Below are positions 11,861 to 54,180 of a DNA stretch of 64,000 nt, piece by piece. A program made the translations under genes and the position numbers. Each line of letters starts with the position of its first letter. The first letter of the stretch is position 1. The stretch is taken from assembly GCA_000165345.1 (NCBI GenBank), contig CM000436.1:1184001-1248000 (forward strand), in the 5' to 3' direction. Below the pieces are notes generated by a model. It saw nothing but the letters and a program-made list of their open reading frames with translations. It was not told the DNA's origin and did not search any database.

Positions 11861-11900
11861 AGAGTGAGAGAGAGAGAGAGAGAGAGAGTGAGTGAGTGAG
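11861..11900. repeat. (GA)n / (GAGT)n microsatellite
   Basis: agagtgagagagagagagagagagagagtgagtgagtgag. Confidence 0.9.
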
Positions 11901-12275
11901 AAAGAGAGATAAATAGAAAGAGTGTGAGAGTGAAGGAAGGGTTAAAAAAACATCTTGGAAGGTTTGTTTTCGAAATCTTCTTGGATACGGGAATTAAAAT
12001 ACATATAGTCAAGGTTTTGTTGTACCACTAAATAAATCACAGAGCTAAAGATTGGAAGTTATATTTATTCTTGATAAGATTTTGAAATAATAGGGGTTTC
12101 TGGTCTTTAAGGCACTAGTAACAACTGAAAGGTTTGGATAACTTACAGTTTGATAATATTATTTGCCTTAAAGAGAGATTTTACTTCTTTTATCTAATAT
12201 AATAATCCAATTCTTCTGTCGTTTATTCTATAAATTGTGAATAATAAAAGGTTTGGCTGAATTAGTATCATCGAG

Positions 12276-18951: not shown

Positions 18952-19555
18952 ATGTCAGGAAATAGTAAGCAGTTATCCAAGTCAGAATTGGTTAAGATAT
19001 TGAAAAAGTCTACAAGCAGTACTAGGGAGAAGAATTTGGCAATAAAGCAATTAAAGAAGTTTCCACCAAATCAAAAAGATGAACTGGATAAGAATTTGGA
19101 AGGTTTAAAATTTAAAGTTAACAAGAATAAGTTATTTCATTTTTTGTAAGTTTTGAATGATGAGAATTTGGATTATGAAATTTTGTTGAATTATTTTAAA
19201 GAATTCAACAAAAATCATTCCAAAAAAAAATATTAAATATAAATTAATGTTAAAATTTAATATCTAAAAACAAAACAAAAAAAAAGATGTTTTAGATGCG
19301 ATAAGCCTAAACAGTCTAATATTCAAGTATTGTGTAAGCTTAAAGGTAAGTAATTTAATTTATTAAAAGAAAAAAATTAATTAAATTATTAAACATGAAA
19401 ATAATTAAAATTCAATGAATAACATTAATATTAATAATAATGATAAAATGATATTATACATTATAGATTCAGAATATACAATATGTCACTGTTGCTATCT
19501 TTCATTAGAAAGTAGTATTGAATTGAAAAGAATTAAAAGTTTGAATTTAAGATAA
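18952..19555 (+). CDS. small (~113 aa) spliced zinc-ribbon protein, 3 exons: 18952-19145, 19287-19345, 19467-19555
   Basis: Donors GTAAGT at 19146 and 19346. Acceptors aaaaaaaaag|A at 19286 and cattatag|A at 19466. The frame is kept across all three exons and unites CFRCDKPKQSNIQVLCKLK (exon 2) with DSEYTICHCCY (exon 3) into a C-x2-C...CHCC metal-binding module. TGGCGCCA and GCATGC sit ~90 bp upstream. Confidence 0.55.
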
Positions 19556-22528: not shown

Positions 22529-22640
22529 ATCTTTAATATTAAGATTTAGTTAATATTTTTTTTCCTCTCTTTTTCTTCTTCTTCATGAATCATAATTATC
22601 ATCCAAACCAAATATTCAGAGTAGAAATAGCCCATAGATT

Positions 22641-23054
22641 ATGAGAAAAGAAAGAGTAATTCCTTATTTTCTTCTTTTTCTTCAACTTAATGTTATTATT
22701 GGAATTTTTATTAAAAAAAAAAAATTAATAATAATATCAAAGGAGAATCACTTTCTTTCTTTCTCTAATCATTTTGTGACTTTAAAAGAAAAAAGGATTT
22801 CAACAACCAGTTCTACCACTTTATTTATAACAAACAACCATTTCCACCACATAATCTTCAATAAAAATTTGCAAAAACCAAAACAACCTTGAGTAACATA
22901 ATTACGACAACTTCTACTAATGATCTTATTAATAACTATTACTACTACTGTTACTACTGATACTACTACTACCACTACTACTACCACTACCATCACTAAC
23001 AATACAACTTCTAAAATAAACACTAATATTGTTATTGCTAATATTTATAACTAA
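22641..23054 (+). pseudogene. possible degenerate small mucin-like gene: signal-peptide ORF, then a Thr-rich tract in the same frame, interrupted by TGA (22890) and TAA (22899)
   Basis: ATG at 22641 gives MRKERVIPYFLLFLQLNVIIGIF. The same frame continues after two stops into TITTTVTTDTTTTTTTTTITNNTTSKINTN to the TAA at 23052-23054. I could not find a convincing intron that removes the stops. Confidence 0.25.
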
Positions 23055-23828
23055 TCACTATTACTGCTATTAATACTAGTATTAATATTATTATTAGTAT
23101 TATTATTACCACTACTACAATGGCATTACAATATTGCTACATTTAAGTTTATATGAATGTTGTAATAATCAATTGGTTCTAAATCAAAATGGTGAAAAAC
23201 TAATGTATAAACAGACAGACAAATAAAGCAGACAGATGAATAAACAGAGAAATGAATAAGCAAAAAGATGAATAAATCTACAAAAATAAGAAAGAAAGGA
23301 AAAAAAAAAAGAAAAGGAAGAAATAGACTAAAGAATACTGAGAAAAGTTCTTTATTGATAAGGAATGGGAGGGAAAGAGAAAAAAAAAGTTAAGTTTTCC
23401 AATATGTTGAAATAATCTTTTTCTCTTATTAACTAAGTAATAAGATTTAAATAAAAAAAAATATATTATAATGAACTCGTATAATTGTTTAATCTAAATA
23501 AATTAATTAAATCTTTTATTGATATATCCCAACTTAAAAGAAATATATAAACTTTCTTAAATATACATCAAATAATATTTGGATATTAACAATAATTGAC
23601 TAGAAGAAAAGCAATTGGTGATTATTTTCTTTTTTCTTTTCCACATCTTTATTTATTATTTATCTTTAATATTAATGAGTATAATGGGGAAAAAAAAGAG
23701 AAATTTACACAAAATATTAAACAAATACAGGAATAGATAAGTTATGATTTCTTAATATTTGAATTATAAAATAAGAATAAATCAATTAATTAAAAACAAT
23801 AATATAACATTATTAACAAACGTTGTAA

Positions 23829-23838
23829 NNNNTNTNTT
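23829..23838. other. run of ambiguous bases (nnnntnt); single N also at 14774, 23951, 24437 and 24812
   Basis: A low-quality or gap region in an extremely AT-rich spacer. Confidence 0.9.
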
Positions 23839-24245
23839 AATGTTTTTCTATCATATTTATTTATTTTCCTTTTAGAAAATTTATTAATATAAAAAAATAA
23901 TAATAATAATAATAATAATATTAAAAGTTATTAGAAAATAAGTCAAATTTANTTTTGTAAATTTAATTGTATTATTTGTAATATAATTATAACAAAAAAG
24001 TGTTTTTTTTTTTAAATAAATATATTAATAGCATGTACTATTAATTATTACTAATTTATAAAGATTACAATGAGTAATTGTCAAAAATAAAGCATAAAAA
24101 TTAATAAAAATAATAAGCTTTTGTTTATATATATTATTTAAGTTAATTGATACTAAATGAAACTAAAATTTATTTAGAAAAAAAAAGAAGAAAATTCAAT
24201 TTATAAATTATATTCAAATAGTAGATAATAATTAATATTATATTA

Positions 24246-24287
<42 letters not shown>

Positions 24288-24304
24288 AATATTGTATTAA
24301 TTTT

Positions 24305-24331
24305 TTTGGCGGGAAAAGAATTTGCATGCAA
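24305..24331. promoter_or_regulatory. TTTGGCGGGAAAAGAATTTGCATGCAA, a textbook E2F site plus GCATGC, sitting in a convergent 3'-3' gap
   Basis: An exact TTTGGCGGGAAA consensus ~200 bp beyond the stop of the giant minus-strand gene. No annotated gene starts nearby. Confidence 0.4.
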
Positions 24332-24519
24332 TAGCCATTTAAATTCCTTACACGTAATAAATAATTAAATAATTTTTTTAAAGTTAAAGGGAAAAGAGTG
24401 GAAAAAAAAAGATTGTTAATAAATATAGTTATTTAGANAGAAAGTTATGAAAAGTTATTAATATAAATAGATAGAAAATGATTAATTCTTTTCTTCGTGT
24501 ATTTATTAATTAAATTTAT

Positions 24520-27500
24520 TCACTCCTTTTTAGGAATTTCTTGATTTAAATTCACATTCTTTAAACTATTATTATTGTTTGTTGGATCTTGAATTGGATT
24601 TCCAATTGTTGTCCCTCCTTTATTTATTCCATTAAAGCCAACTAATGGGTTTCCAATATGTTGTTGAAATTGTTGTTGCTGAAGTTGTTGCTGTTGTTGT
24701 TGTTGTATTATTAAACTCAACATATCTCCTCCAATGGAATTTCTATTTAATTGTTGTCGACTTTGAAAATTAAAAGGGATTGTATTTGCTAGAAACTGTT
24801 GTTGCAGTTGTNGCAATTGCAGTTGTTGTTGCTGCTGTTGCAGTTGTTGTAGTTGTTGAAGTTGTTGTTGTTGTTGTTGTTGTTGCTGTTGTTGTTGTTG
24901 TTGCTGCTGCTGCTGCTGCTGCTGTTGCTTTAACTGTAGCTGCAATTGAAGTTGAAGTTGTAGCTGTTGATTGTGTTGTTGCTGCAGTTGCTGTTGTTGT
25001 TGATGTTGTTGCTGTTGTTGCTGTTGCAATAACTGTTGTTGGAACAAATGTTGAAGTTGGAAAAAGTTAGGAAATGCTTGGGGTTGTGTTTGCAAAGAGG
25101 TTTGTGAAAAAAGTCCATTTCCAACCCCGAATTCATTTCCAACTCCAGCTTCAATTCCAGCTCCAGTTCCAATTCCAGCTCCAGTTACAACTCCAACTCC
25201 ACCACTTCCAGCTCCAGCATCAATTCCAGTTCCAGCTCCTACACCAACTCCAGATCCAACTCCAGCTCCTACGCCAACTCCTACACCAACTCCAGATCCT
25301 GCTCCAGCTCCAGATCCAGCTCCAGCTCCAGCTCCAGCTCCAGCTCCAGCTCCAGCTCCAGCTCCAGCTCCAGCTCCAGCTCCAGCTCCAGCTCCTACTG
25401 AATTCAAAGTTGCAGAATCAAATATTCCTGGAACTATAACACCTTTATTTGAGCTATTTTCTGTTTTTGAATTAAATCCTCCTTCTCCGCCTTCTGAGGC
25501 TCCCATTGTTATTTTACTTGAAATTTCAACAACCTCACATGACTTCTCTCCGTCTACTATCGCTTCCTTAGCTAAAACCATACTCTTACTATTATCGTAA
25601 TCCCCTACTTTAGTAGAATCTCCAACTAATACCTCATTCTTGTCCTCATTCTTCTCCTTCTCTGTCTCTTTCTGCTCTTCTTTTCCATATTGATCATTTA
25701 CTGATATTCCTTCTACTAATCCAGAAACCATCTCTGCTTTCAAATCCGTAATCAGAGTTTCAGATTCAGGTTTGAGCTTAGTTTCAGGTCCAGGTTCAGA
25801 CTCAAGATTGGGTTCAGTTTCAGGATTAAGATCCCGCTCTTTTAACTCTGTAGAATCTTTAGTTGTTGAATTATTTACAGAAGTTGGATTAGGACTTGTA
25901 GTGATACCTGCAGTATAATTACTACCGCCAACAATTCCACCACTTCCCAATAATGTGTTCATTATCATCTGATTTAAAGGATTTGCCAATCCTCCAACAA
26001 ATCCAATCTGTTGAGAATTTCTCATTTGTTCTTGTAATGTTTGCTGAAAAACCAACTGTTGTTGTAAGTATTGATTCATTAATATACTATTCCAAGTCTG
26101 ATTGTGATTGCTCTGGGAATTAATATTTGTTGAATCACTTGTACTATTATTAACACTGCTTGTTGTATTAACACCATTATTCACAGGATTTATAGATATG
26201 GGATTCTCTGTTGCTCCTACTGCTCCTGATACCGATCCTGATTCTCCTATTCCTGTTCCTCCCACTCCTCCTGCTACATTATGCTGTCCAAGATTAGACC
26301 CCAAGCCTCCAAATAATAATCCAGAAGGATACCCCACTCCTGTTGCTCCTGTTGCTCCTGTTGCTCCTGTTGCTGCTCCTACTCCTACCCCTGCTCCTCC
26401 TACTCCTGTTACTCCCATTCCTATCCCTCCTCCTCCTCCTAATCCCAACCCTCCTATACCAGGAATTCCCCCCTTAGCCATTCCAGGTATACCAGATATG
26501 CCTCCTATACGAGGTATTCCTCCTAAATTTTGTAGTCCTCCCATACTTTGTAGTCCACCCAAACCCTGAAATCCTCCTATACCTTGTAGTCCTCCAAGCC
26601 CTGACAAATCTTGAATGCCATTACCGCTCCCACTACAACTATTACTACTGCTACTGTTATTAATATCATTACCACCACTTCCTCCTACATCACCAACAGC
26701 ATTTTCCACTCCCATTCCAGAATAAATACCTGTATTTGATACTTGGCAAGGCTTTAATGGATTCACTTGAGATGTAACATTTCCACATGAATTAATAATT
26801 GATGGAAAACCACCTGATAAAATTGGTATAGAATTATCATTAACTTTAGGTAATTGTAATCCAAAATTTACGTTACCCATATTCATATTTAATAATGAAT
26901 TTGGCTGTAATTGACTTAGTCCAGGAATTGAATTATCTGAAATAAAGTAGTTTGCTAGAATTCCATTATTATTTAATAATAGTAAGTTATTAATATTATT
27001 GGATGATGATGATGTTTCTATTTTACCATTTAATACTTTATTATTACTATTTCCTTTCATATACTCATCCATCAATTTTGGTATCTTTCTATTCATACTC
27101 TCTTCATTATATTCATTTAAACCAATATTATTACCATTTCCACTACTCATTAGTATATCATTACTGTTCGTATCACTAACTTCCTTGCTATTTAACAATC
27201 CTACTACTCCTGTTACACCTGATCCTGGCCCTGATCCTGGCCCTGATCCTGATCCTGACCCTGATCCTGACCCTCTCTTACGTCTTCCTTGCCTTGGCTT
27301 CTCATTCATTGATGATTTTTGTAATACCGAATTACTATTTATATTATTAACTATTTCCAAATTTCTTAATTTACCTTTACCTGTCTCTGTTGATGGAACA
27401 TTTGAGACATAATTTGAAATATCTGAAGATAATGAATAATCTTGCTTATTTGATGGAGATATTGTCAAAGAATGTAATAAAGAATTACTACCATTTATAA

Positions 27501-30500
27501 CTCCTCCTAATTCTCCCATTATATTATCCATAAACTGATTCAAATATAAATATACCGATACCTTTAAATCATTTATTGATATATTTGGATCCAAATATGA
27601 CATATTCAAAGATTCTTGATCTTTATATTCTTTATGATCAAATATTATTGGTATATTACTTGGTAATTGTATATTTGAATTTCCTTGCTTATTTTGAATA
27701 TTTATATTATAAAAAGGAGAAATTAATGCATCCATATCTTTTGGTAATATATATCCATTACTTAAGTTATCCATTGTATATCTTTTATTTGTATTTAAAT
27801 GAGAATCATCATGTTTTCTAAATAAAAACTTATATATTAAATCATCATATAATCCCCATTCTTCTTTCTTTTCTATTCCTATCATATTATTATTCATTTC
27901 TCTTCTTTCAATTATTGGAAGCCTAAATAATGTTGATGGTCTATTTAACATTCTTCTTAAAGATGATCTTGAAAGAAGTCTCTCTGTATACATATTCATA
28001 TTACCAAGACTACTAAAACATGATCTCTTATAAAAATCTCTCATAAAATGATTATATGTTGATTCAATTGTTAAAGTATTCAATATTTCATCAATTAAAA
28101 GCTCCCTATATGAATGTTTCTTATATTTAATAATCTCCATACATCTTATAGTACTAATAAGACTATTCCAAAATATACTCTTATCTTTTTTTATTTGTAT
28201 ATTATCATCATCTTGAGAATCTTTAATAATTCTTTGAATATTTTCTTCTGTATCATCTTTTGTATGAATTGAAGATGATATTATTTCATCATCATTCATT
28301 ATATTATGATCTTTTTGATCATAATGATGATTCATATTAATTTGATTCTTATTATGATTTCCTTTAAAATAATATACTAATCTTAAAATCCTTTTAAATC
28401 CTAATGTATATTTATATTTGTAATAAAAATCTATACAATCTTTAATAGTCTTATATTCCATAAATGATGCTATCCTTCTGAAATCTTTTGGATACATTAA
28501 ATACTTTTCTATAAACATTCTTATTTCTGAATAAGTCCATATAGTATTTCTATTCCTTTCTTGATCAGTTGGATTGATTACTTGATTATTCTTATTAATA
28601 TAAATAAATTTCACAGGTTTAATAGGATCTTGATCATAAACATTAAATTCAATTTCTGCAGGAAATCTAAAAATACTATTCTCAAACCATAGTGGAGATG
28701 GACCTATAAAACTGGATGATGAACTAGTCATTTGCATCCATTCTCTTTGAGCTTGTTTTTGATGTACTATTCCTTTTTCTCTTTCTCTATTTTTTTGTAT
28801 ATTCAATCCAATATCTTTTTCTTTATCTTTTTCTTTATTAGAAATAGGTATTTCTTTATAATTTTTAGTTACCCCGATACCTAATGTTGTAGTACCAGAA
28901 GAACCAAATGATAAAGAATTACAACTATTAGAATGAGAAGGATTAGATTGTGATGTAGAAGTGATATTATTTCCTGTTAAAATATTTCCAATTGATGGTT
29001 GAGAATCATTTTTCATAACTGATGCAAATTCATTAGAATAATTTGTAGATCCAGGTACCCCTCCAGTTTTAACCAAATTAAGAAATGATAAAGATGCATT
29101 GCCTGTATTTGATGACATAGAATGATCTTCATTTCCAATAATATTATTGGAAGAATGATAATTATCATTAGAATTTCTTGTCCTTCTTGATCTTGTAGAA
29201 TTTAATTCAAAGGTACCGACATCAATTCCTCCAGTTCCTCTTTTTCTTCTTGTATTACTAACAGTATTAAGTGTTTCATTTGTTGAATTAGAGATATTAT
29301 TTATATCATGAGTATTCCGATTAATACTTTCAGAATGATTTTGTTCAATATTTCCAATATGATCACTTCCTTTTAATATACCTCCTTTTGTTTGAATATT
29401 ATATAACTTTTGATTATTATTAGTATTAGTAGAATCAATATTATCACCAAATACAAGAGCTCTATTAGAATTAGTAAAAAGTATTGGTGTTTGAATATTT
29501 TGTAAAGACATCATATAAGTTTTTGATATATCATTATTTCTACATTCAGGTAGAAGATCTAGAAATTTATGATATACTTTAAACCTAAAATCATGTTTAA
29601 AATAACCAATAGGTAAAGGTACCAATTGATCAGGATGATCAATTGCTCTTAAAGGTAAACAACCCCAAGTAAAATTCAGATCTCTTTCACTATTTAACAT
29701 TTCATTATATGCAACATATCTTTTATAACGATGATATATAAAATGTAAAGATCTTTTAATATTTGATATTTCATTTCTAATCATGATCTTTTTTCTTTTA
29801 ATATGTTTTCTTACTCTTTGAATTTTTGAAGAATAACCAAGTAAATTAATAGGATGATAAAAATCACCATTAATTGGTCTTAAAATATCTTTAATAACTT
29901 TTAAAGCAAACTTATTATGATCTTGTATTGGATAACAAAGACTAGTATAGTATGGCATTAAAGATACATATTCTGGTATACCAAGTATAACTTCAATATA
30001 ATCTTGTATTTCTCTATCAATAACTAAATCATCCTGATAGATTTTAATAATTTCAAGAGTATGATCATCTTTACTTTCTTCTAAAATAGATTCTAATAAC
30101 TTAATTTCATCCATTAAATAGTTAAATGTTGATATAAGAAATGGAATATGATCACCAGTATTTTTTTGATGATTATCGATAGTAATGATCTCATTAATTT
30201 TATCCTTTAAAACTTTTAAAGAATTTAATTTCTCAATATTTTCTTCTTTGAGTTTTTGTAAAGATTCTGTAATTCCAAAATCATTATTAATATGAGAAGA
30301 AGAATTAGAATCTTGAGAATTTTTATTTTCATTAATAAATCGTATTCGGTACCTTTTTAGATCTTTATTATTTGTATCAATTTCACTATTAATAAATTGA
30401 TCCAACTCTTTAATTCTACCAGGCAAAACACAAATCTTAACTTTTTGTCTTGCAGTTCTAAAAGCCTGACTTGTATTTTCCATAACTGAAGCCAAGTAAT

Positions 30501-31749
30501 TATAATTATGATCATTTTCTTCTAAATTATTATTAATTTCAGAGTTTCCCGCCTTTTCTGTAAAGAATGAGCAAGAATCTGAAATATTGTTAGAATTAGA
30601 AGAATCAATATAAAGATTTTCGAATGCCGTATTGGTATGTTCATCTTCAACTTTTTTTAGTGTGAGATTAGATAGATTGAAATCTGGAGTTAGAAATTCA
30701 ATAGCTCCTAGTAGTCCTTGTTTGTAATTAATAGACTTTTTGTGATTATAATCAGTAAGTCCAGCACAAGATGATGATTCATAAGAGGTACCTAAAGTAA
30801 TTTGAGAAGTTTCTTGAGATCTTTTAACAAGATTAACTTGATAAATATGATATATTTTACATAAATCATTCAAGAATTGACCATTTTCTCCATAAGTTGA
30901 GCTATTAACTGAATTAATCTTTTTAATGTTTCTAATATTTCCCAAGCTTAAATTTAAGTATGGACCTCTTCTATGATCTTGTGCTATTGGTAGTTGTTGT
31001 AAATTGTAATTCTCCAGTTCTCTACCTCCTTTATCATATAAATCTTTCAAGTAATATTTACAAGCTAAAGTAAAAATATCCAAAGGAGTTCTTGATCTTA
31101 ATATCTTTTCTGTTTCATCTATCTCAGTCTTTTCCTTGGAGCTAGTGTTCTTCCTTCTAAAGTATCTTCTATGAGTTTTCTTCTTTTTTGTGTTTATAGC
31201 TTTCAAATCTTTTGTAGAAGAGGAGCATGAATTATTAATATTACTATTGTTATTAGTTGCATTTAAACCAGAACTTGAGCCTAAATTAGCTCCTGAATCA
31301 AAATCTAGAGCCTCACATATCTCTTCTCCTTCTCCATCATCTAAATCATCATCCATAATAGAAGTTGTTAAACAATTTTCATTAAAGTTAATACTATTTG
31401 CCTCGATATTTCTTCTTTCTTGTTCCTTTTTTAATTGTTCCAACTCTAAATTAATTCTCAGTATCTCATCCTGAAGGTATAATACTAAATTATGATCCTT
31501 TAAAATATTTACATTACCAAAAATCATCTTATCTTGAATCTTCTCTTCATCTATTATTGGCTCATATAGAAATTCATCCTTGAATAAATTATCTTTCAAT
31601 CCTCCACCTTCACTAAAATCAGAAACTTGCTTCAAATATTTATCCACTAATTTCTCAAATTCATCAGCTTCCTTAACATTTTTAACTTTTCTACATCCAT
31701 TAATTATGCTTCCCAGCAAAATCTCGTTATATTCAGTTTCTTTATCCAT
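24520..31749 (-). CDS. giant (2409 aa) nuclear low-complexity protein with an N-CoR-type SANT domain; poly-Q, (AG)n, (GS/GP)n and LQ repeat tracts
   Basis: ATG at 31749-31747. WTYSEIRMFIEKYLMYPKDFRRIASFMEYKTIKDCIDFYYKYK matches the SANT consensus. The C-terminal third is encoded by microsatellites: (TTG/CTG)n at 24800-24960 and (GCTCCA)n at 25319-25396. An ambiguous base at 24812 falls inside the ORF. Confidence 0.75.
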   Translation of the reverse strand: MDKETEYNEILLGSIINGCRKVKNVKEADEFEKLVDKYLKQVSDFSEGGGLKDNLFKDEFLYEPIIDEEKIQDKMIFGNVNILKDHNLVLYLQDEILRINLELEQLKKEQERRNIEANSINFNENCLTTSIMDDDLDDGEGEEICEALDFDSGANLGSSSGLNATNNNSNINNSCSSSTKDLKAINTKKKKTHRRYFRRKNTSSKEKTEIDETEKILRSRTPLDIFTLACKYYLKDLYDKGGRELENYNLQQLPIAQDHRRGPYLNLSLGNIRNIKKINSVNSSTYGENGQFLNDLCKIYHIYQVNLVKRSQETSQITLGTSYESSSCAGLTDYNHKKSINYKQGLLGAIEFLTPDFNLSNLTLKKVEDEHTNTAFENLYIDSSNSNNISDSCSFFTEKAGNSEINNNLEENDHNYNYLASVMENTSQAFRTARQKVKICVLPGRIKELDQFINSEIDTNNKDLKRYRIRFINENKNSQDSNSSSHINNDFGITESLQKLKEENIEKLNSLKVLKDKINEIITIDNHQKNTGDHIPFLISTFNYLMDEIKLLESILEESKDDHTLEIIKIYQDDLVIDREIQDYIEVILGIPEYVSLMPYYTSLCYPIQDHNKFALKVIKDILRPINGDFYHPINLLGYSSKIQRVRKHIKRKKIMIRNEISNIKRSLHFIYHRYKRYVAYNEMLNSERDLNFTWGCLPLRAIDHPDQLVPLPIGYFKHDFRFKVYHKFLDLLPECRNNDISKTYMMSLQNIQTPILFTNSNRALVFGDNIDSTNTNNNQKLYNIQTKGGILKGSDHIGNIEQNHSESINRNTHDINNISNSTNETLNTVSNTRRKRGTGGIDVGTFELNSTRSRRTRNSNDNYHSSNNIIGNEDHSMSSNTGNASLSFLNLVKTGGVPGSTNYSNEFASVMKNDSQPSIGNILTGNNITSTSQSNPSHSNSCNSLSFGSSGTTTLGIGVTKNYKEIPISNKEKDKEKDIGLNIQKNREREKGIVHQKQAQREWMQMTSSSSSFIGPSPLWFENSIFRFPAEIEFNVYDQDPIKPVKFIYINKNNQVINPTDQERNRNTIWTYSEIRMFIEKYLMYPKDFRRIASFMEYKTIKDCIDFYYKYKYTLGFKRILRLVYYFKGNHNKNQINMNHHYDQKDHNIMNDDEIISSSIHTKDDTEENIQRIIKDSQDDDNIQIKKDKSIFWNSLISTIRCMEIIKYKKHSYRELLIDEILNTLTIESTYNHFMRDFYKRSCFSSLGNMNMYTERLLSRSSLRRMLNRPSTLFRLPIIERREMNNNMIGIEKKEEWGLYDDLIYKFLFRKHDDSHLNTNKRYTMDNLSNGYILPKDMDALISPFYNINIQNKQGNSNIQLPSNIPIIFDHKEYKDQESLNMSYLDPNISINDLKVSVYLYLNQFMDNIMGELGGVINGSNSLLHSLTISPSNKQDYSLSSDISNYVSNVPSTETGKGKLRNLEIVNNINSNSVLQKSSMNEKPRQGRRKRGSGSGSGSGSGPGSGPGSGVTGVVGLLNSKEVSDTNSNDILMSSGNGNNIGLNEYNEESMNRKIPKLMDEYMKGNSNNKVLNGKIETSSSSNNINNLLLLNNNGILANYFISDNSIPGLSQLQPNSLLNMNMGNVNFGLQLPKVNDNSIPILSGGFPSIINSCGNVTSQVNPLKPCQVSNTGIYSGMGVENAVGDVGGSGGNDINNSSSSNSCSGSGNGIQDLSGLGGLQGIGGFQGLGGLQSMGGLQNLGGIPRIGGISGIPGMAKGGIPGIGGLGLGGGGGIGMGVTGVGGAGVGVGAATGATGATGATGVGYPSGLLFGGLGSNLGQHNVAGGVGGTGIGESGSVSGAVGATENPISINPVNNGVNTTSSVNNSTSDSTNINSQSNHNQTWNSILMNQYLQQQLVFQQTLQEQMRNSQQIGFVGGLANPLNQMIMNTLLGSGGIVGGSNYTAGITTSPNPTSVNNSTTKDSTELKERDLNPETEPNLESEPGPETKLKPESETLITDLKAEMVSGLVEGISVNDQYGKEEQKETEKEKNEDKNEVLVGDSTKVGDYDNSKSMVLAKEAIVDGEKSCEVVEISSKITMGASEGGEGGFNSKTENSSNKGVIVPGIFDSATLNSVGAGAGAGAGAGAGAGAGAGAGAGAGAGSGAGAGSGVGVGVGVGAGVGSGVGVGAGTGIDAGAGSGGVGVVTGAGIGTGAGIEAGVGNEFGVGNGLFSQTSLQTQPQAFPNFFQLQHLFQQQLLQQQQQQQHQQQQQLQQQHNQQLQLQLQLQLQLKQQQQQQQQQQQQQQQQQQQQQQLQQLQQLQQQQQQLQLXQLQQQFLANTIPFNFQSRQQLNRNSIGGDMLSLIIQQQQQQQLQQQQFQQHIGNPLVGFNGINKGGTTIGNPIQDPTNNNNSLKNVNLNQEIPKKE
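24800..24960. repeat. (TTG/CTG)n trinucleotide tract inside the giant SANT gene, encoding poly-Gln on the minus strand
   Basis: gttgttgttgttgctgctgctg; includes the N at 24812. Confidence 0.9.
25319..25396. repeat. (GCTCCA)13 hexanucleotide repeat inside the giant SANT gene, encoding (AG)n on the minus strand
   Basis: A perfect tandem hexamer. Confidence 0.95.
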
Positions 31750-44614: not shown

Positions 44615-47600
44615 ATGCAGAACAGGCTATTATATTCAGAAGGAGACTATGAGGACTCTTTTTTAAGCGGAGTTGTTGGTCTAGATACCGGATCAAATGG
44701 TTCAGGCAATTCTTCTAGAAGAGCTAATCAAGGAGGAGCAGCAGGGGGAACTGAATCAGGAGGGATTGGACTTTATGACAGTAGAATTTCTAATAAAGGC
44801 GGCGCATATTATTCTTCAGAAATTAATCATGGATTAACAAGTATGAGTGGTGGTAGATCATCTGTTGGCTATTATGATCATTTTGGTGGGGTTGGATCGG
44901 GACATTTGGATAGTGGCTTAGGGGCTTTAGGAGCAGACTTGAGAGTTGGACAAGCTCCATGGGGATGGGAAACATATACGAGTTATAATATGATTGGCTT
45001 GTTTTCTTCCCATACTAATAATAAGAAAATTAGGCCTTTTATTTCTTCAATTTATTGTGATCCATTTTATGAGCTCCTTTGGCTTGGTTGGACAAATGGA
45101 TTTCTGAGTTCATTCAGATTTCCCCATTGTAGTAGATATACAGCATTTCCAGTAGGAATAGCTGATTCTGCAAGTGGGGGTGGACTTGTCAGAGATAATG
45201 TGATTTACATGGGATTTCCATCATCTTCGCACTTATATACAGTGACTAATAGTGGAATAGGTGTCTATTCCAGAGGAGGAGCACCAATATCTTCTCATTC
45301 ATATAATACACTAACCAATGAAAAGCAACAAAGCTCAAAAATACTGTGCTGTGATTCAAATAGATATCAGTCTTATATGATGAGTAGTCATCCAATCATT
45401 GGTATTGGAACAGGAAAAGGTGTGTCAATCCTAGATTTACAGCAAGTACGACCAATTCACAGTATTCCATATAGTGGAAGTATTAGCTGTATTAAAAGCT
45501 CAGCAAGTTCCTCAAGTTTTATTGTTGGAGGAGTAAATATGCTTGGAATTGCTGATACAAGACTTCCAAGATTAGGACATACTATTCAGATACATCCTAC
45601 TAATTCAGGACAAAATGAGACATTGGTTTCAGGATTAGCAGTTAATGAATACACAGTAGCAATAATTACCAGTACAATCTCAAATAGGAAGATATCGTCG
45701 GATGAACTTTTAAGTTCTGTTGGAGGAGTTTGTGGACTTCCTGTGCTTGATTTAATTAGAATCCATCCTGGAGAAGTTTCTACTTCACCAGAAATGATGG
45801 TTTATAAGAAGAACTTAGATTTGACAAACATGATGAGGGATTCTGTAGTTAGATTATATGATACCAGAAAATTCAGACCAAGGAAAAATATCTCATTTTC
45901 TCCAGGACCAATAAACATTGCTTGGAGTGATAATTCACTGGCCATTTCAGCAGGAACTGCTACTACACCTGATTTTGAGGATTTATACGTTATTGGAAAT
46001 AATGGACAGTGGCAAATTTACCACTCTAATATAGACCAAATGGAATTCTATGCTACTCCATCTGTTCCTTTATCAAATCTTAATTTTAGCTCGTCTAGCA
46101 ATTACCTAATATTGGCTGATACTTCTGGGTCAATCCACACCATGCAGAGGCCTCATACAAATGGAGGAATAACTTCCTCATCTTCAATTCAACCAAATAC
46201 TTCATCAAACACGAATATTAGTACAAGCAACACAAAACTAGAACAGCAACAAATCACAGGTTCAGGAATTTCTGGAGGTGGTGTTGGTGGAGGAATGGGT
46301 TCAAGTTCGGCTTATAATCACCAAAATCATCAACACTCTTTTAGTGTCTTCCATTCTTATCCTCTTCCTAATTTAAATATACCGGGAGCAAGCATTGGAG
46401 GAGGTTACAACAGACAAATGAATACTTCTCTATATAATTACTCATATGTGAAGTCAATTCAAACTCTAATGGGAATTGCCTCCAATCCTGTAACTAAGCC
46501 TATCACTCATAATGTTGGACACCCAACAATACCTAACCTTACAGTCGCACTCAGATATCTTCAAGGACGTCCTGTTGTTGCTTACGATTCTCTAAATTCA
46601 GTTGGAATTCCTCCTATTCTTGAGAAACTACATAATGGAAAGCTTAATATTAAAGAAGATAACCTACTTAGCTTTAACAACAAGTTTGATATTGACCAAA
46701 TTCGTAAAATTCAAACAGAATTTGGTTGGAATACCTACAAATCATCTGATGAGCTCCCACACGGACTTACTATAGTTAAAGCTAGAACAATTCCCCGACA
46801 AACAGATTCTTCACTTGGTCTCAATATTAGCACATCCAATCTCCCTGGACCTCAGAACTCTGCCATAAGGAGCCCGCCTAACGTGGGAGACATGCAAGGT
46901 TTAGTGCATGCAATGGGGGGCATTAATAAGCAGAGTGGAATTCAGTCAAACACGAGGGAACACAATGAAGGTGGAGAGGCCCGACATGGTCACTCTAGCG
47001 GAGCTTTGGCATTTTCTGTGGAGTATATCCGTGAAGTTCGACCAGAGATGGACCATTATAAACTAAAAGCATTGGATTTTAGAATGGTTGACTTTATAAA
47101 GGCTGCTATTAACCCTGATACGACTAAATACAGAAACAATAACTTGGTTTATGGTATCCCTCTCCTTTGTCTTAGAGGTTCTATGCCAATTTGGTACTAT
47201 CGCAAGAAGAAGAATATGTCTCTTTATGCATTTGGAGGTACTCAAGGCTCTTCAGGTGAACATTCTCACACAAAAAGCCTTTCCTTAGTCCCCGTTAAAT
47301 TCCATTATAAACCAAGATTGAACCCGAATAGGCGGGAAAAAATGAAGAACAGAAGGATGATGGGTGGAGGAACTTCAATTGAGAATTCAACTGCAGGAAC
47401 TTCGGGCCAAGGTGTCGCTCATACAGCAGGAGCTTTGGGAAATATGAGTACTAGCTCATCCCTTCCAAATGGAGGGGATGCTCAGACAGTTTCGAGAGCA
47501 GAGGATGATCAATCTTCAATTGGAGAAGGTCTGGTTTCAATAGAATTTGATAACGATACTTTGGACTTTACTCAGCCATTCTTTATGTTACTTTCTTTTA

Positions 47601-50425
47601 TTCCAAAGCTTTCATATGACATCCTTCTTGCTCATGTACCAGGCTGTACCTCAGAATTTTGTCTTGCTTGTGAGCTTGTTCATCTAACATTTATGTTGTA
47701 CAGTTGCAAGTTTAATTTAAAGAATGGAAAAGGACGAAATCCCGACTTATTTCCATGCGTAATACTCAATTCAATCTATACATTAAACATGTTAAGAACT
47801 GTTAGGCATATACCAGAAATAAAACAGCTTGGGATAGATTCCGAGGATAGTCAACAAAGTCTAGTAGGGGCTCCTGGAATTGGAGGAGGATCTGTGAATA
47901 GTAATGGCTCTTTGGGAGGTACTGGGGTTGGGGAATTAAAATTTGGAGGAGTTGGATCAGGAGTTGGATCAGGAAGTCCAACTGGTGGATTCGATGATAT
48001 TAACTTTAATGGAATGTCTTTATTGAGTCACTTACCTCAAGCAGCTTTCAACCAGATTCGGAAGACCGAGATCTTTTGGAAGTTCTTCTTGGAGAATTTG
48101 AAAGTTGATATGATGAATAAAACAAATTTTAATCCAAATACTGAAAGGATAATCGATGAGCAAGAAACAAGTACTCCTGGCCAGTTTGGAGGTACAAATG
48201 AGAATTGTATTTTTGAAAAGTTGATAGATTCTCTTTTCAATATTGAGGTTACAACAATCAGTAGTTGTGTACAAGCTAAACACGCATTTAAATCAACGCA
48301 GATTGTCACGTATTTAGATATACCAGCAAATCATTTATTAGCACAGAATTCTATGCCGATAGGCCAGAAGTTGGATACATCTTCCAAAATGGGTCAGAAG
48401 GATGACCTAATTCTATCCCAGAAGCTGAAATCTGAGAAATTTTTGAAGGCCTTGAATTCTAACTTACTGAGGATCATTGCCGGAAGAAGCTTCTGTAAGG
48501 AATGTGGAACTTCAACTGCTTGTCAGCATGTTAGATGTATCACAAAGCTCCCTCAGCTTCTTGTTCTTTCTTGCAATATCCAGTCACTAAAACACTGGAA
48601 TGAATATGGAGGTATGTCTCCTGAAGAACATGAAGAATTTGTCAAAAAGAGCCAGGGAATAAGTGGAAGTGGCTCTGGAACCAACCACGAACAACTTCCA
48701 AATACAGAATATTCAATACCTTTCGATATTCGATTCTCAAAGTTAAGAAAAGGGTTCAGTTCTCAGAATGGACGTGCCACTGGAGAGACATCAGGCGGAA
48801 TAGATATTATCCAGGTTGATAAGACTACTGTATTTACAGAGGGTAGTATTGGACATAATGGTGAACGAGATAAAGAATCCAAGTTAGACAACGAAAATCC
48901 CAATATGGGAGGAAACTACCAAGAATATGAGTTAGTTGCATTGATATTTGGAGTTTATCAAGGTTGTTCAATTCAGCTTCCATCCGGTACCCATTTTTGT
49001 ATGTATGTTAAGCATAAGTTATTATTTAACGAAATGAATAATACACAAGATAAATGGTACATGATCAATGGATCTTCAATTCTTCCAGTGAATAACAAGA
49101 ACGAGATTATTAATTTTACATCTTGTTGGAAACTTCCTACTTTCTTATTCTATTCAGACAAGAAAGGGAATTTATTGAATTACTTATTCAATAAATATCC
49201 ATGTTTAGAATTTCAACTTGATTTGGCCCAAAGTGACTTGGATCTTTTAGTAAGAAAGGTTTCTGGTACTGATAATGATGATGAAGAATGCATTGATCAA
49301 GAAAATGAGAAAGATTCTCTTAGTAAAGACAAAGTAATACCTGATCAAAGCCCTGATAATAATTCAGAAACTAACACCAATCTTGAATCAAGTCATTTAA
49401 CCCAGAATATTTCTGAAATGGATATTTTAGATATTCATGGTATTAAATTTAAGATACCTTGGAAGTATCCAAAAATAATACATGAGCACGTAATACAACA
49501 ATTGGAATCAATAATAAAGCTAATTAAGAACGAAAAGAATCTTTCAGAAAATCCGGATCCAAGTCAGATCAATGATCAGTCTCCATTCACAACTAGAGAA
49601 CTTTCAAATCTTTGCTTAAATTACTTTGTAAGATATCCATTTTCTAAAGGACTTTTGAAGAAACCAAAAGAAATTAATGAAAGATTTATAAATACTCCTA
49701 GTCATTCAGAATTTATTCAAAATTCTCCAATGATTGTTGCACTGGATTCAGAGTATGTTGCTTTAGATGTTGAACAATCTGTTGTAAGATCTGATGGAAC
49801 AAAAGAAATCTTGAAAAAATCTCAATTGTCTTTAGCAAGAGTTTCAATTGTACGTTGTGGAAAGATATCATTAACGGGAGCTAATGATAATGTTGAAATT
49901 GATAACAAAAAAGGACTGATAATGGACCATTATGTATCTTACGGATCAAATAGTCAGCAACCTAGAGATTATTTGACAAAATATTCAGGAGTGAGACCTG
50001 GAGATTTGGATCCTAAAACTTCATCTCACTTTCTTACCAGTAAATCCTGTATACTTAAGAAACTTCAGTTCTTGGTAGATGCTGGTGTAGTATTTATTGG
50101 ACACGCACTCCCAAGTGACTTTAAAATAATTAATATTTATGTTCCTCCATTTCAAATTATTGATACTGTTGAGATTTACAGACTCCCTGATGAAAGATAT
50201 ATCAGTCTTAAATTTTTGGCTAAATTTGTACTCAACAAGAATATCCAAACTGAGGTCCATGATTCTATCGTTGATGCTAAAACTGCACTCGAGCTTTTCT
50301 TAAAGCACCTTTCTTTAAAGAAGAGCGGATCTTGGAATGATTTCCTTAGTTTCCTTTATTCAAAGGGTCATTCTGTTGATTGGAAGATTGAAGCTATTGA
50401 AAACTCAAATTTTGAGCATAATTAA
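44615..50425 (+). CDS. PAN2: PAN2, catalytic subunit of the PAN2-PAN3 poly(A) deadenylase (pseudo-UCH domain + DEDDh exonuclease), with large low-complexity insertions
   Basis: The C-terminus IVALDSEYVAL...SLARVSIV...DHYV...DYLTKYSGVRPGDLDP...GHALPSDFKIINIYVP...IDTVEIY...SLKFLAKFVL...HDSIVDAKTALELF matches the PAN2 DEDDh exonuclease. CKECGTSTACQHVRCITKLPQLLVLSCN is the inactive UCH-like fold. ATG at 44615. Confidence 0.85.
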   Translation: MQNRLLYSEGDYEDSFLSGVVGLDTGSNGSGNSSRRANQGGAAGGTESGGIGLYDSRISNKGGAYYSSEINHGLTSMSGGRSSVGYYDHFGGVGSGHLDSGLGALGADLRVGQAPWGWETYTSYNMIGLFSSHTNNKKIRPFISSIYCDPFYELLWLGWTNGFLSSFRFPHCSRYTAFPVGIADSASGGGLVRDNVIYMGFPSSSHLYTVTNSGIGVYSRGGAPISSHSYNTLTNEKQQSSKILCCDSNRYQSYMMSSHPIIGIGTGKGVSILDLQQVRPIHSIPYSGSISCIKSSASSSSFIVGGVNMLGIADTRLPRLGHTIQIHPTNSGQNETLVSGLAVNEYTVAIITSTISNRKISSDELLSSVGGVCGLPVLDLIRIHPGEVSTSPEMMVYKKNLDLTNMMRDSVVRLYDTRKFRPRKNISFSPGPINIAWSDNSLAISAGTATTPDFEDLYVIGNNGQWQIYHSNIDQMEFYATPSVPLSNLNFSSSSNYLILADTSGSIHTMQRPHTNGGITSSSSIQPNTSSNTNISTSNTKLEQQQITGSGISGGGVGGGMGSSSAYNHQNHQHSFSVFHSYPLPNLNIPGASIGGGYNRQMNTSLYNYSYVKSIQTLMGIASNPVTKPITHNVGHPTIPNLTVALRYLQGRPVVAYDSLNSVGIPPILEKLHNGKLNIKEDNLLSFNNKFDIDQIRKIQTEFGWNTYKSSDELPHGLTIVKARTIPRQTDSSLGLNISTSNLPGPQNSAIRSPPNVGDMQGLVHAMGGINKQSGIQSNTREHNEGGEARHGHSSGALAFSVEYIREVRPEMDHYKLKALDFRMVDFIKAAINPDTTKYRNNNLVYGIPLLCLRGSMPIWYYRKKKNMSLYAFGGTQGSSGEHSHTKSLSLVPVKFHYKPRLNPNRREKMKNRRMMGGGTSIENSTAGTSGQGVAHTAGALGNMSTSSSLPNGGDAQTVSRAEDDQSSIGEGLVSIEFDNDTLDFTQPFFMLLSFIPKLSYDILLAHVPGCTSEFCLACELVHLTFMLYSCKFNLKNGKGRNPDLFPCVILNSIYTLNMLRTVRHIPEIKQLGIDSEDSQQSLVGAPGIGGGSVNSNGSLGGTGVGELKFGGVGSGVGSGSPTGGFDDINFNGMSLLSHLPQAAFNQIRKTEIFWKFFLENLKVDMMNKTNFNPNTERIIDEQETSTPGQFGGTNENCIFEKLIDSLFNIEVTTISSCVQAKHAFKSTQIVTYLDIPANHLLAQNSMPIGQKLDTSSKMGQKDDLILSQKLKSEKFLKALNSNLLRIIAGRSFCKECGTSTACQHVRCITKLPQLLVLSCNIQSLKHWNEYGGMSPEEHEEFVKKSQGISGSGSGTNHEQLPNTEYSIPFDIRFSKLRKGFSSQNGRATGETSGGIDIIQVDKTTVFTEGSIGHNGERDKESKLDNENPNMGGNYQEYELVALIFGVYQGCSIQLPSGTHFCMYVKHKLLFNEMNNTQDKWYMINGSSILPVNNKNEIINFTSCWKLPTFLFYSDKKGNLLNYLFNKYPCLEFQLDLAQSDLDLLVRKVSGTDNDDEECIDQENEKDSLSKDKVIPDQSPDNNSETNTNLESSHLTQNISEMDILDIHGIKFKIPWKYPKIIHEHVIQQLESIIKLIKNEKNLSENPDPSQINDQSPFTTRELSNLCLNYFVRYPFSKGLLKKPKEINERFINTPSHSEFIQNSPMIVALDSEYVALDVEQSVVRSDGTKEILKKSQLSLARVSIVRCGKISLTGANDNVEIDNKKGLIMDHYVSYGSNSQQPRDYLTKYSGVRPGDLDPKTSSHFLTSKSCILKKLQFLVDAGVVFIGHALPSDFKIINIYVPPFQIIDTVEIYRLPDERYISLKFLAKFVLNKNIQTEVHDSIVDAKTALELFLKHLSLKKSGSWNDFLSFLYSKGHSVDWKIEAIENSNFEHN

Positions 50426-50805: not shown

Positions 50806-50847
50806 ACCACATGCATCGCAAAGTGGCGCCAATATGCGCGCGGAAAT
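50806..50847. promoter_or_regulatory. CCACATGCATCGCAAAGTGGCGCCAATATGCGCGCGGAAA, ~150 bp upstream of the WD40 gene
   Basis: GGCGCCAAT plus GCGCGCGGAAA (E2F-like) plus CATGCAT. Confidence 0.5.
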
Positions 50848-50995: not shown

Positions 50996-51934
50996 ATGAA
51001 AAGTAAGGGAAAAGGATTAATAAGTGAAGAAAATGAAGAGGTTCCAGTAATATTATTAAGAAAACTAACAAAAAATGAGACAATTTTAAGCTTAGAATTT
51101 ATCAAGGATGATAGTCATTTAATATCTGGAAATATTTCCGGAGTTTTGGATATTTGGGATTTAGAGATCATGAGATGTTCTTCAAGTATAAATATGAAAT
51201 TTGATTCACCTATTATTAAAACTATTTATGATGAAAAAAAGGAAATTATATATGTACAAAATAGAAAAGGTGAGATTTATTTAGTAGATAATACTGAAAA
51301 TTTTAAAAAATTGGATTTAAATGGTATTTACTATTCACTTGCAAAAATGATCATTCTTCCTACTAGAGAAAGTATAATTTTTCCAAGAGAAAATGATCTT
51401 TTATTAAAAAATATTAACAATTCGAAACATGATGATATTCAATTCAATTATCCAACTGAAAAAAGTGACAAACTTATTGAAGTTGAATCTCTTAATGATC
51501 ATTCTGTATTATTAGGTTTTGAATCAGGAAATGTTGTCATTTGGGATTTAAGAAAACCTGATTCTCATGTATATATGAACAATGTAACACAAAATTCTCC
51601 AATATTATCTATGAAAAGATCTTTTAATCGTATTTGGATATCTACCTTTGATTCAAAACTTCGTGTTTTTAATAGAAATTGTTTTGATCATCCAATTAAA
51701 GAAATTGACTCTTTAAATGTTGTTGATAAAATTTCTATACGTTCAGATTCTCTTATTACAGTTACATCCAATACACTTAATACAAACATGGATATTTTTG
51801 AAAATAAATCTTTAAATTATATTAAAACATTCAAATTTCATTCCACAGAAGTTAGTTCTATACAATTCTCAAACTCTTCAAATTTATTTGCTGCTTCATC
51901 AAATACTATTTCAATATGGGATTTACTATCGTAG
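50996..51934 (+). CDS. WD40-repeat protein (312 aa), specific family not recognised
   Basis: ATG at 50996. Repeated blocks SGNISGVLDIWDL, GFESGNVVIWDLRK and SSNTISIWDL are WD repeats. Confidence 0.7.
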   Translation: MKSKGKGLISEENEEVPVILLRKLTKNETILSLEFIKDDSHLISGNISGVLDIWDLEIMRCSSSINMKFDSPIIKTIYDEKKEIIYVQNRKGEIYLVDNTENFKKLDLNGIYYSLAKMIILPTRESIIFPRENDLLLKNINNSKHDDIQFNYPTEKSDKLIEVESLNDHSVLLGFESGNVVIWDLRKPDSHVYMNNVTQNSPILSMKRSFNRIWISTFDSKLRVFNRNCFDHPIKEIDSLNVVDKISIRSDSLITVTSNTLNTNMDIFENKSLNYIKTFKFHSTEVSSIQFSNSSNLFAASSNTISIWDLLS

Positions 51935-52311
51935 TTACTAACCTCAATACTATAACTATAACTATTACTACCAAATTAAAACCAATATTTATATTAACAT
52001 CACTATTAATATTACCGTCACTATTTCTATTCCTGTCTATATTTCTACTACCGTCGATATTTCCATTAATATTCACCATCTAATTTAATTCTCAAAACTA
52101 CCCAAAACCCCTTAATCCGTTAAAATCTCTAAAACACACATTCTAAAGCTCTTATAACCTAAGCCTTATTTTGATTCATTTAAAATAAATTAAAAGAAAA
52201 AGAAATCAAATATTCACAAATAACAACGGAAATTTTTAAAAAAAAATTATTTAAATAAAAAACAAGCTTCCTCTCACTTTTCTTGCTACTATTAATTGTA
52301 ATTAATATTCA

Positions 52312-54180
52312 TTAAAAATTTGCCACGTCATTTGTACCGCCATTCCCCACATGTGGCGCCTCTTCCGTTGTATTGGAAATTAAATTAAATATAGAGTTTT
52401 TATTATGTCTATAATTAAAATCATCATAATCAAAATTTGATAAAAGTTCAAGTTGTTTAATTATTTGATTAATTTGTAAACTTGATGGTCTGGAATATGA
52501 GTTAATATCTGAATTATAATTTGAAGCTACTTTTGAATTTTTTGGTTTATGTACGAGGCAAGGAAATAAATCAATTGTATGAGATTCATTCATCTTCTCT
52601 TCAATTATATCCAAATTGTTTAAATCTTCTGAATTCTTTAATTCTTTTAATTCATCTTTTATGTTATAATAATCTAAAAGAAGTTCTTGATCTTGACTTG
52701 GAAGTTGTTCTTCTGATAGAAAAACTAAAATCATCCAGTCAAATTCTGCTTGAATCTCTTTTAATCTTCTTTTAAAATTATTAGATTTTTGATTTATTAA
52801 ATTATCCTCATTATTATATTTACTATTATTATTTCCATTCTTACTTTCAAATTCCTTCTTTGCTAAATTTAAAAATTTTGTCCATCCTTGTTTACTTTCA
52901 CAAAATATTATCCCAAAAGTATCATTTAATGATGATTTATTTCTAAATGTATTTAATAAACTTACTGAATCTTTATTTATTACAAGATTTTTTGGATTTG
53001 AACCAATTATTTGAATATTTGTAAAACTATCTATTTTTAACTTTGTATTTTGTAAATTATTATAATTATTTACAAGTCTTGAAAATAATCCCTTCTTTAA
53101 ATTTGGTAAACATTTATCATTTATTAAATTTGAATCAATTGAATCCAAATTCATTACTATTGGATTCTCAAACAAATTTTTTGGCATACTTAATAACTTT
53201 TTTAAATATGTATATGAATTATTTATTAATATTTTATAATTTGTTATTGATATATTCATTGCAGGTAAATCCCTTAATTCAATACTATTCTTATTCAATA
53301 TTGGCTTAAAAAATAAATAAATTAATAATTCTTGCCAAAAAAATTCCCATTCTGATTCATTATTTAAACATTTATTATTATTAATATTTATATTTATTTC
53401 ATTATTATTCGATAATTTTGTTTCAAATATACCTTTCATCTCATTCCAATGATCTAAAAATCCATATTTTAAAATATCATCACCATATTCATCATAAACT
53501 TCTTTTTTATTTGGATTACTTAAAAATTCATAAGATTCTTGAACTTGTCTAAATTTTATTAAACTCTTTTCTTTTTGTTCATCATTCTCTGATCTTTGTT
53601 TATCAGGATGTAATTTAGAAGCTTTTTTTCTATATGCTTTCTTAATATTTTCTATACTACTTCCAGGTTGAAGTTCTAATATATCATAATATTTATGAGA
53701 AATTAAAACTCTTCTATTTAATATTTTTAATTCATCATTTTCTAAATAATTATCTTTTATTTTATTTCTTTTCTTATATTTATCTTGATTATCATCTTCA
53801 TCATTTTCTTCTTCATCAGATATTATTAATTCCCTTCTTTTTAATACACTATTTTGACTTCTTAATGTTTTAACATAATCTGATTTTGTCTTTGAATCAT
53901 TACTAACAATGCTTGGTGAATAACTTATTTTACTTAAAATATCATCTTGTTTACTTTTATTATTTATACTATTATTACTATTACTACTACTAGTACTTGT
54001 AATACTAGCTAAACTTTTATTATTTAATTCTTCTGTAATATCATTATTTTTGTAAAATCTACTAATTCCTATTTCAAATTCTTTAAATTTTTTACTTTCT
54101 TTATTTAATATATTCTCAAAATTATTCTTTTCAACATTTCTAGATTTTTGATAATCTTTTAGTCTCTTTGTAAACATCAT
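52312..54180 (-). CDS. J-domain (DnaJ/Hsp40 co-chaperone family) protein, 622 aa, Ser/Asn-rich N-terminus
   Basis: DYYDILELQPGSSIENIKKAYRKKASKLHPDKQ...FRQVQESYEFLSNPNKKEVYDEYG is a canonical J domain with HPD. ATG at 54180-54178. Confidence 0.8.
   Translation of the reverse strand: MMFTKRLKDYQKSRNVEKNNFENILNKESKKFKEFEIGISRFYKNNDITEELNNKSLASITSTSSSNSNNSINNKSKQDDILSKISYSPSIVSNDSKTKSDYVKTLRSQNSVLKRRELIISDEEENDEDDNQDKYKKRNKIKDNYLENDELKILNRRVLISHKYYDILELQPGSSIENIKKAYRKKASKLHPDKQRSENDEQKEKSLIKFRQVQESYEFLSNPNKKEVYDEYGDDILKYGFLDHWNEMKGIFETKLSNNNEINININNNKCLNNESEWEFFWQELLIYLFFKPILNKNSIELRDLPAMNISITNYKILINNSYTYLKKLLSMPKNLFENPIVMNLDSIDSNLINDKCLPNLKKGLFSRLVNNYNNLQNTKLKIDSFTNIQIIGSNPKNLVINKDSVSLLNTFRNKSSLNDTFGIIFCESKQGWTKFLNLAKKEFESKNGNNNSKYNNEDNLINQKSNNFKRRLKEIQAEFDWMILVFLSEEQLPSQDQELLLDYYNIKDELKELKNSEDLNNLDIIEEKMNESHTIDLFPCLVHKPKNSKVASNYNSDINSYSRPSSLQINQIIKQLELLSNFDYDDFNYRHNKNSIFNLISNTTEEAPHVGNGGTNDVANF

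Follow-up and report, generated by a model that had tools for sequence, protein, structure and literature searches.

The final codons of a DnaJ (J-domain) gene raise the question of why a cluster of promoter-type motifs should be embedded in protein-coding sequence at the very end of a gene. The DNA analyzed is a 64-kb window, which we infer to be part of chromosome 8 of Cryptosporidium parvum, and the DnaJ gene occupies positions 52312–54180 of its minus strand. Its 622-amino acid (aa) product contains a PF00226 domain and exactly matches C. parvum QOY40261.1 and its duplicates. The open reading frame (ORF) ends with EEAPHVGNGGTNDVANF followed by the stop codon, and a 46-nucleotide (nt) string in this tail (52321–52366) has a G+C content of 58.7%, compared to a mean of 20.8% for the gene. 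This value is the maximum within the gene and falls in the top 0.4% of all 46-nt coding windows across the 64 kb. The motif cluster lies 12–50 nt from the DnaJ stop codon, within the last 15 codons, at the junction with a convergent WD40-repeat gene (50996–51934, plus strand). We confirm the string, the coordinates, and the convergent arrangement that a first-pass annotation of this DNA had described. That annotation offered three explanations: a mis-modeled DnaJ 3′ end, the start of an unannotated transcript, or a 3′-end or bidirectional regulatory signal. The first is not supported: deposited C. parvum proteins match all 622 residues, and seven species share the reading frame of the tail. 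Among the functional readings, an unannotated transcript start is the best supported, and a 3′-end or bidirectional regulatory signal is possible. We lean, with moderate confidence, toward a compact E2F/G-box module that acts at the DNA level while its bases double as codons, and that probably starts a non-coding or antisense transcript.

The sense strand of the DnaJ gene reads GAG GCG CCA CAT GTG GGG AAT GGC GGT ACA AAT GAC GTG GCA across the cluster, and several known motifs can be recognized along it. Oberstaller et al. (2013) described a set of upstream motifs in C. parvum, among them motif 2 (DTGTGGGG), motif 3 (DTTGSCGCCH), and motif 4 (TTTGGCGGGAAV) (PMC3734150). An E2F/DP-type site, AGGCGCCA (52354–52361, minus strand), spans codons E607-A608-P609 (GAG GCG CCA) and fits both the E2F/DP consensus [A/T][C/G]GCGC[G/C][A/T] (PMC12246861) and the core of motif 3. 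It is followed by a G-box-like motif, ATGTGGGGAA (52343–52352, minus strand; codons H610-V611-G612-N613), whose core ATGTGGGG (52345–52352, minus strand) fits motif 2. A second E2F-like core, AATGGCGGTA (52335–52344, minus strand), contains the E2F-like half-site GGCGG, which is the core of motif 4. The cluster closes with a TGACGTGG element (52323–52330, minus strand; codons N617-D618-V619-A620). ACGTGG occurs six times in the window, compared to 1.5 expected, and two of these copies lie in the promoter near 15700; ACGT-type motifs are not mentioned in the ApiAP2 binding paper. The DnaJ-tail cluster thus carries the same cores as the published upstream motifs (AGGCGCCA for motif 3, ATGTGGGG for motif 2, and GGCGG(GAA) for motif 4), but it differs from them in that it is not upstream of an annotated gene and instead sits in the last 15 codons of one, at a 3′–3′ junction. 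The E2F/DP-type site fits its consensus and is more conserved than neutral sites are; downstream of the cluster, neither strand carries an annotated gene or a conserved ORF, so the site lacks the upstream position looked for in an E2F/DP element.

We compared the junction across seven intestinal species: C. parvum, C. tyzzeri, C. meleagridis, chipmunk genotype I, C. ubiquitum, C. canis, and one species represented by an assembly from the Sequence Read Archive (SRA). The orthologous loci of the more distant C. bovis, C. ryanae, and C. muris were added to this set; the C. felis contig ends inside PAN2, and the comparison contains no C. felis DnaJ junction. A Tara contig contributed nothing to the comparison. 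Among the seven species, AGGCGCCA-nnT-GTGGGG-AAn-GGCGG is the best-conserved DNA of the whole junction region. All eight bases of AGGCGCCA are invariant, and only one other invariant stretch of the gene compares with it in length. TGTGGGG is kept in six of the seven, being replaced by TAGGGGA in chipmunk genotype I. The GGCGG half-site is invariant, with the third-position C of the GGC codon fixed. C. ubiquitum and chipmunk genotype I share the form GGCGGGAAA of the surrounding core, and C. canis has GGCGGG; these fuller forms match motif 4. The TGACGTGG element is present in five species. Its position is occupied by TGACGTGT in the SRA-assembly species and, in C. ubiquitum, by CATGCATGC, which resembles the ApiAP2 TGCATGCA motif. 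In chipmunk genotype I and C. canis, the TGA of TGACGTGG is itself the DnaJ stop codon, so the element is read there in another frame.

Silent positions also show this constraint. Across the gene, 58 of 555 third-codon columns (10.5%) are invariant in the seven species, compared to six of eight in codons 607–614. This block ranks at the top of 404 windows, and the next best window outside it reaches four. By our arithmetic, the corresponding binomial tail is ~3e-5 per window, or ~0.01 after multiplication by 404. A single codon is retained in all seven species at only 29 of the 231 invariant degenerate residues, and A608 (GCG), P609 (CCA), and G614 (GGC) are among them. The codons that spell the motifs are also rare in use: GCG accounts for 2.2% of Ala codons, GGC and GGG for 5.2% and 7.5% of Gly, GTG for 9.5% of Val, and GAC for 8.9% of Asp, and we calculate a product of usage fractions of ~2e-9 for the nine motif codons. 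Identity between C. parvum and C. canis at fourfold degenerate sites is 0.38, so neutral sites are near saturation over this range; the retention of the cluster out to C. canis is unlikely to be noise. Residue changes are confined to the motif spacers (His, Thr, Tyr, or Cys at 610 and Asn, Lys, or Glu at 613, with T616 also variable) and do not fall in the cores. Judged from these alignments, selection on the nucleotide sequence, not on the peptide, accounts for the conservation pattern. Conservation of the exact C-terminus in orthologs, together with a lack of nearby transcription initiation, had been proposed in the first-pass annotation as evidence against a regulatory element. The peptide EAPxVGxGG is indeed conserved, but it follows the DNA motifs, including at silent positions, and the tail is missing from three distant orthologs; because peptide conservation tracks the DNA motifs, it does not refute a DNA element.

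The distribution of the tail itself bears on how the overlap arose. The module is carried by a 19-codon C-terminal extension, TTEEAPHVGNGGTNDVANF (52315–52371, minus strand), which the orthologs from C. bovis, C. ryanae, and C. muris lack. These distant proteins were found by a full HMMER search with a post-J-domain profile; a word-indexed protein search with the post-J-domain alignment profile returned only two proteins, both already known. All three end where the C. parvum protein has ...LISN, ~19 residues earlier, and the rest of their C-terminal domain aligns. The absence of the tail from all three identifies it as a clade-specific extension. In C. ryanae, where the spacer is ~55 nt, an E2F core (CGCGCC) begins one base past the DnaJ stop codon. 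In C. bovis, the first 90 nt past the stop contain two copies of GCATGC, several TGCAT repeats (at 40–90 nt), and one ACGTG, forming a TGCATGCA-type cluster. The simplest history suggested by these arrangements would be stop loss followed by read-through: an ancestral regulatory cluster would have stood just downstream of the DnaJ stop codon, the stop would have been lost in the ancestor of the parvum–canis clade, and the frame would then have read through the cluster. Within this clade, the DnaJ frame runs ~19 codons over the module, with the same bases serving as codons and as putative binding sites, and the conserved EAPxVGxGG peptide would largely be a by-product of this overlap. Human studies have described duons, transcription factor sites that lie within coding exons. 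Like duons, the bases of the DnaJ tail specify both amino acids and a recognizable putative binding site, with constraint at synonymous positions. Unlike duons, the coding role here looks secondary, the tail being a clade-specific read-through extension rather than an ancient exon.

The same motifs also occur elsewhere in the window. The first-pass annotation regarded all of them as promoter-specific outside the DnaJ tail. This is correct for GGCGCC and for a composite in which GTGGGG and an E2F-like core lie within 25 nt of each other; it is wrong for CACGTC/GACGTG, which is coding at seven of seven sites, and weak for GGCGG, which is coding at nine of 21. GGCGCC occurs nine times compared to 0.24 expected from shuffling, with seven intergenic copies, one (616) inside ORF 143–2065, and one in the DnaJ tail. 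Two of the seven intergenic copies fall in seemingly convergent gaps, where small ORFs begin 94–214 nt downstream, and these two sites behave as promoters. The ORFs downstream of E2F-like cores in these seemingly 3′–3′ gaps (8460–8726, plus strand, 88 aa with a hydrophobic N-terminus; and 18952–19149, plus strand, 65 aa) are likely to be genuine small genes or first exons. Besides the DnaJ tail, three intergenic places (near 2093, 15708, and 43229) contain the composite; the five remaining coding GTGGGG sites of the window lack it. The DnaJ-tail cluster thus shares its pairing of GTGGGG and an E2F-like core with intergenic sites.

The genuine promoter of the WD40 gene, 1.5 kb from the module, provides a direct comparison. 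It contains paired E2F cores, TGGCGCCA and GCGCGC (50824–50843, plus strand), 159–171 nt before the ATG, and each of the six species examined has two E2F cores between −155 and −172, separated by 12–14 nt. The identity of the core drifts between variants (GGCGCC, GCGCGC, and GGCGGG), indicative of binding-site turnover at a fixed position. The DnaJ-tail module likewise contains paired E2F cores, but their conservation is stricter than in the WD40 promoter.

What could such a module control at the end of two genes? The local gene order is PAN2-like (plus), WD40 (plus), DnaJ (minus), trehalose-phosphate synthase (TPS; plus), and DEAD helicase (minus). The WD40 gene encodes a 312-aa product identical to Q5CV95/CPATCC_004367, and its stop codon is kept across the species compared. 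The convergent 3′–3′ spacer between it and the DnaJ gene (51935–52311, 377 nt, assigned to neither strand) is fast-evolving and contains no conserved ORF and no Rfam match. Identity between species in the spacer does not exceed that at fourfold degenerate sites (0.76 in the spacer versus 0.85 at fourfold sites for C. parvum and C. meleagridis). At gathering thresholds Rfam yields no matches in the window, and nothing credible appears in 51800–52500; the best E-value is 1.7. In C. canis, the WD40 stop codon lies ~45 nt from the DnaJ stop codon by tblastn, and this gap is occupied by TGACGTGG, TGCATG, TTTGGGCGGG, and GGGTGGGG, leaving no room for a separate gene. An independent small gene in the spacer is thus not supported, given the absence of a conserved ORF, the absence of conservation beyond the neutral rate, and the short C. 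canis spacer. The sole spacer ORF (57 aa, 51906–52079, minus strand) was considered as a target gene and rejected; it is of low complexity, is not conserved, and has lost its ATG in C. meleagridis. A hidden 3′ intron of the WD40 gene, beginning at GTAGTTACTAAC past the stop codon and followed by a further exon, was also rejected, because the TAG stop is kept and the GT is not (TCATAG and TCCTAG in other species). As the convergent spacer is tight and holds no other gene, any transcript begun at the module would be antisense to DnaJ or to WD40.

The junction differs among public records and lineages. In C. muris, three extra genes (556, 559, and 251 aa) lie between DnaJ and WD40 (locus positions 7749–12711), so that gastric and intestinal species differ in synteny. 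The public C. canis record annotates WD40 only as an 88-aa fragment, and tblastn recovers an intact gene (locus positions 7831–8766). In the public C. ryanae record, WD40 and PAN2 appear merged as a single product of 2146 aa (locus positions 8000–13971).

Transcript initiation is the function to which the known biology of E2F motifs in this genus points most directly. No other predicted regulator is as abundant in Cryptosporidium as E2F/DP, which has been kept in no other apicomplexan genus (PMC12246861). Li et al. (2021) reported that antisense long non-coding RNAs (lncRNAs) of C. parvum show a positional bias toward the 3′ end of the sense mRNA, that at least 93 of them have an E2F motif in the 100 bp upstream, and that many of their promoters are seemingly bidirectional (PMC7840661). 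E2F is also the dominant motif in the open chromatin of sporozoites, as defined by peaks from the assay for transposase-accessible chromatin with sequencing (bioRxiv 10.1101/2025.01.17.633476), and the newer C. parvum annotation, CpBGF, contains 766 lncRNAs (PMC12246861). The association of E2F motifs with antisense lncRNAs at gene 3′ ends and with open chromatin makes initiation of a transcript the likeliest function here. The DnaJ-tail module resembles the antisense promoters of Li et al. in carrying an E2F motif at the 3′ end of a sense gene; it differs in that its motif lies inside coding sequence, is conserved to C. canis, and belongs to a locus missing from the searched part of their catalog. 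The module would comprise the E2F/DP site, the G-box-like site, the second E2F-like core, and the TGACGTGG element at the DnaJ/WD40 convergent junction, and it would act as DNA to which E2F/DP and a G-box-binding factor bind, its sites being arranged in a promoter-like grammar. Its likeliest job would be to start a non-coding transcript at the 3′–3′ junction, antisense to WD40 or DnaJ, with both the existence and the direction of that transcript predicted from the motifs and their setting.

Several observations weigh against this reading. None of 18 k-mers from the locus occurs in the 324 of 396 catalog lncRNA sequences that were searched (PMC7840661), whereas a control k-mer was found. The putative unannotated transcript start is supported by the match to published promoter motifs and by the DNA-level constraint. 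In unambiguous tandem contexts, GGCGGG is co-directional with its target gene in five cases and opposed in two, a weak bias since some of these sites are mutually orthologous; motif orientation was accordingly rejected as a guide to transcript direction, there being too few independent sites. At the convergent junction between the helicase and TPS genes, where the spacer is 90 nt, all species examined lack such a cluster, so it is not a general feature of such junctions. In C. muris, no such motifs follow the DnaJ stop codon. Finally, conservation alone cannot tell a DNA element from an RNA element.

A rather unlikely alternative, drawn by analogy, is that the module would bind E2F/DP and its partners as a 3′ boundary, a nucleosome-free roadblock or termination aid that separates convergent polymerases. 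In yeast, roadblock termination and 3′ nucleosome-free regions involve bound general regulatory factors, and the DnaJ–WD40 junction resembles these cases in presenting a predicted factor-binding cluster at convergent 3′ ends in a compact genome. The module stands exactly at the convergent junction, the spacer shrinks to 45–55 nt in C. canis and C. ryanae and is itself unconstrained, and the locus has no match in the searched part of the lncRNA catalog (324 of 396). The helicase/TPS junction tells against a boundary as it does against a promoter, however, and so does the lack of the cluster in C. muris. Moreover, the Cryptosporidium motifs are documented as upstream and open-chromatin motifs, with no terminator role reported, and the parallel with yeast is limited by the absence of evidence for such a role for Cryptosporidium E2F/DP. 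The broader proposition, that E2F/DP and a G-box partner form a general chromatin-opening or boundary factor in Cryptosporidium beyond promoter activation, with the DnaJ tail as a conserved 3′ boundary, roadblock, or terminator that froze the read-through codons, is a shade more doubtful. If true, it would provide a clear apicomplexan case of regulatory DNA dictating the C-terminus of a protein.

The conserved sequence could instead act as RNA. It might bind a protein or form a structure, either within the 3′ end of the DnaJ mRNA or, on the other strand, in a long 3′ untranslated region of the WD40 mRNA. Constraint that operates at the nucleotide level and independently of frame would also arise from RNA. 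We nevertheless consider this improbable: there is no Rfam match, and RNAalifold over the motif block predicts only a 4-bp helix with four invariant pairs and no compensatory changes. The conserved blocks coincide with known DNA motifs enriched upstream of genes, and their distance from the WD40 stop codon varies from ~45 to 420 nt.

That EAPxVGxGG is a functional C-terminal peptide of a co-chaperone, with its likeness to promoter motifs a coincidence, is less probable again. A608, P609, G612, G614, and G615 are invariant in the seven species and always in the same frame, as this explanation would require. It leaves unexplained, however, the fixed silent positions in the rarest codons and the conservation of TGACGTGG across and beyond the stop codon, and the orthologs from C. 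bovis, C. ryanae, and C. muris have no such tail even though their remaining C-terminal domain aligns. A chance GC-rich patch, which the necessarily GC-rich codons of Gly, Ala, and Pro might produce, and a mis-annotated DnaJ 3′ end are effectively refuted by the excess of GGCGCC over expectation, the top-ranked third-position conservation and its extent across seven species, and the exact match of the ORF to deposited proteins.

Promoter-type motifs also appear in or near other coding sequences of the window. At 616–636, GGCGCC and TGCATGCA lie 7 nt apart inside ORF 143–2065, whose translation looks coding throughout (...NGAPNGACNG...); this ORF has no ATG at 143, and the gene model is uncertain there. 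At 7750–7823, two copies of TGCATGCA flank the stop codon (7810) of the gene at 2486–7810 (plus strand), 59 nt before and 6 nt after it, with AATGACGTG between them. AATGACGTG lies 50 nt before the stop codon of 2486–7810 and 108 nt before that of the helicase gene; as a general signal of gene 3′ ends it was rejected, the helicase copy being kept in close relatives only. A promoter-type cluster at another gene 3′ end consists of TTTGGCGGGAAAA followed by TGCATGCA (24300–24335), ~200 nt past the stop codon of a gene for a 2409-aa protein (24520–31749, minus strand). The 2-kb stretch around it (22529–24519) contains no convincing ORF, and the searched part of the lncRNA catalog (324 of 396) holds no match to the cluster. 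Within the PAN2-like coding sequence (44615–50425, plus strand), CCCGCC, ACGTGG, TGCATGCA, and GGGGGG fall within 45 nt (46871–46915), partly in rare codons (AGC CCG CCT AAC GTG ... GTG CAT GCA ATG GGG GGC). CCCGCC and TGCATGCA are each kept in five of six species. The gene encodes 1936 aa and is split in some annotations; the cluster is a possible internal promoter within it.

The motifs themselves are already known, as are antisense promoters that are associated with E2F and located at the 3′ ends of genes. What the DnaJ tail adds, as read from sequence comparison, is a module that lies within coding sequence where two genes converge, that is retained as far as C. canis under measurable synonymous constraint, and that appears to have shaped the C-terminus of a protein. 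Almost none of the E2F/DP sites in Cryptosporidium has been functionally tested (PMC12246861). Because the site in the DnaJ tail overlaps codons, motif and peptide can be separated by recoding, a synonymous change altering the one and an early stop the other. If an antisense transcript fires from the module, it would provide a defined promoter for asking why antisense RNAs accompany ~10% of C. parvum genes. If none does, the module would point to a non-promoter role of E2F sites at gene ends. The locus also suggests that in compact genomes such as these the conservation of a peptide can be the shadow of regulatory DNA.

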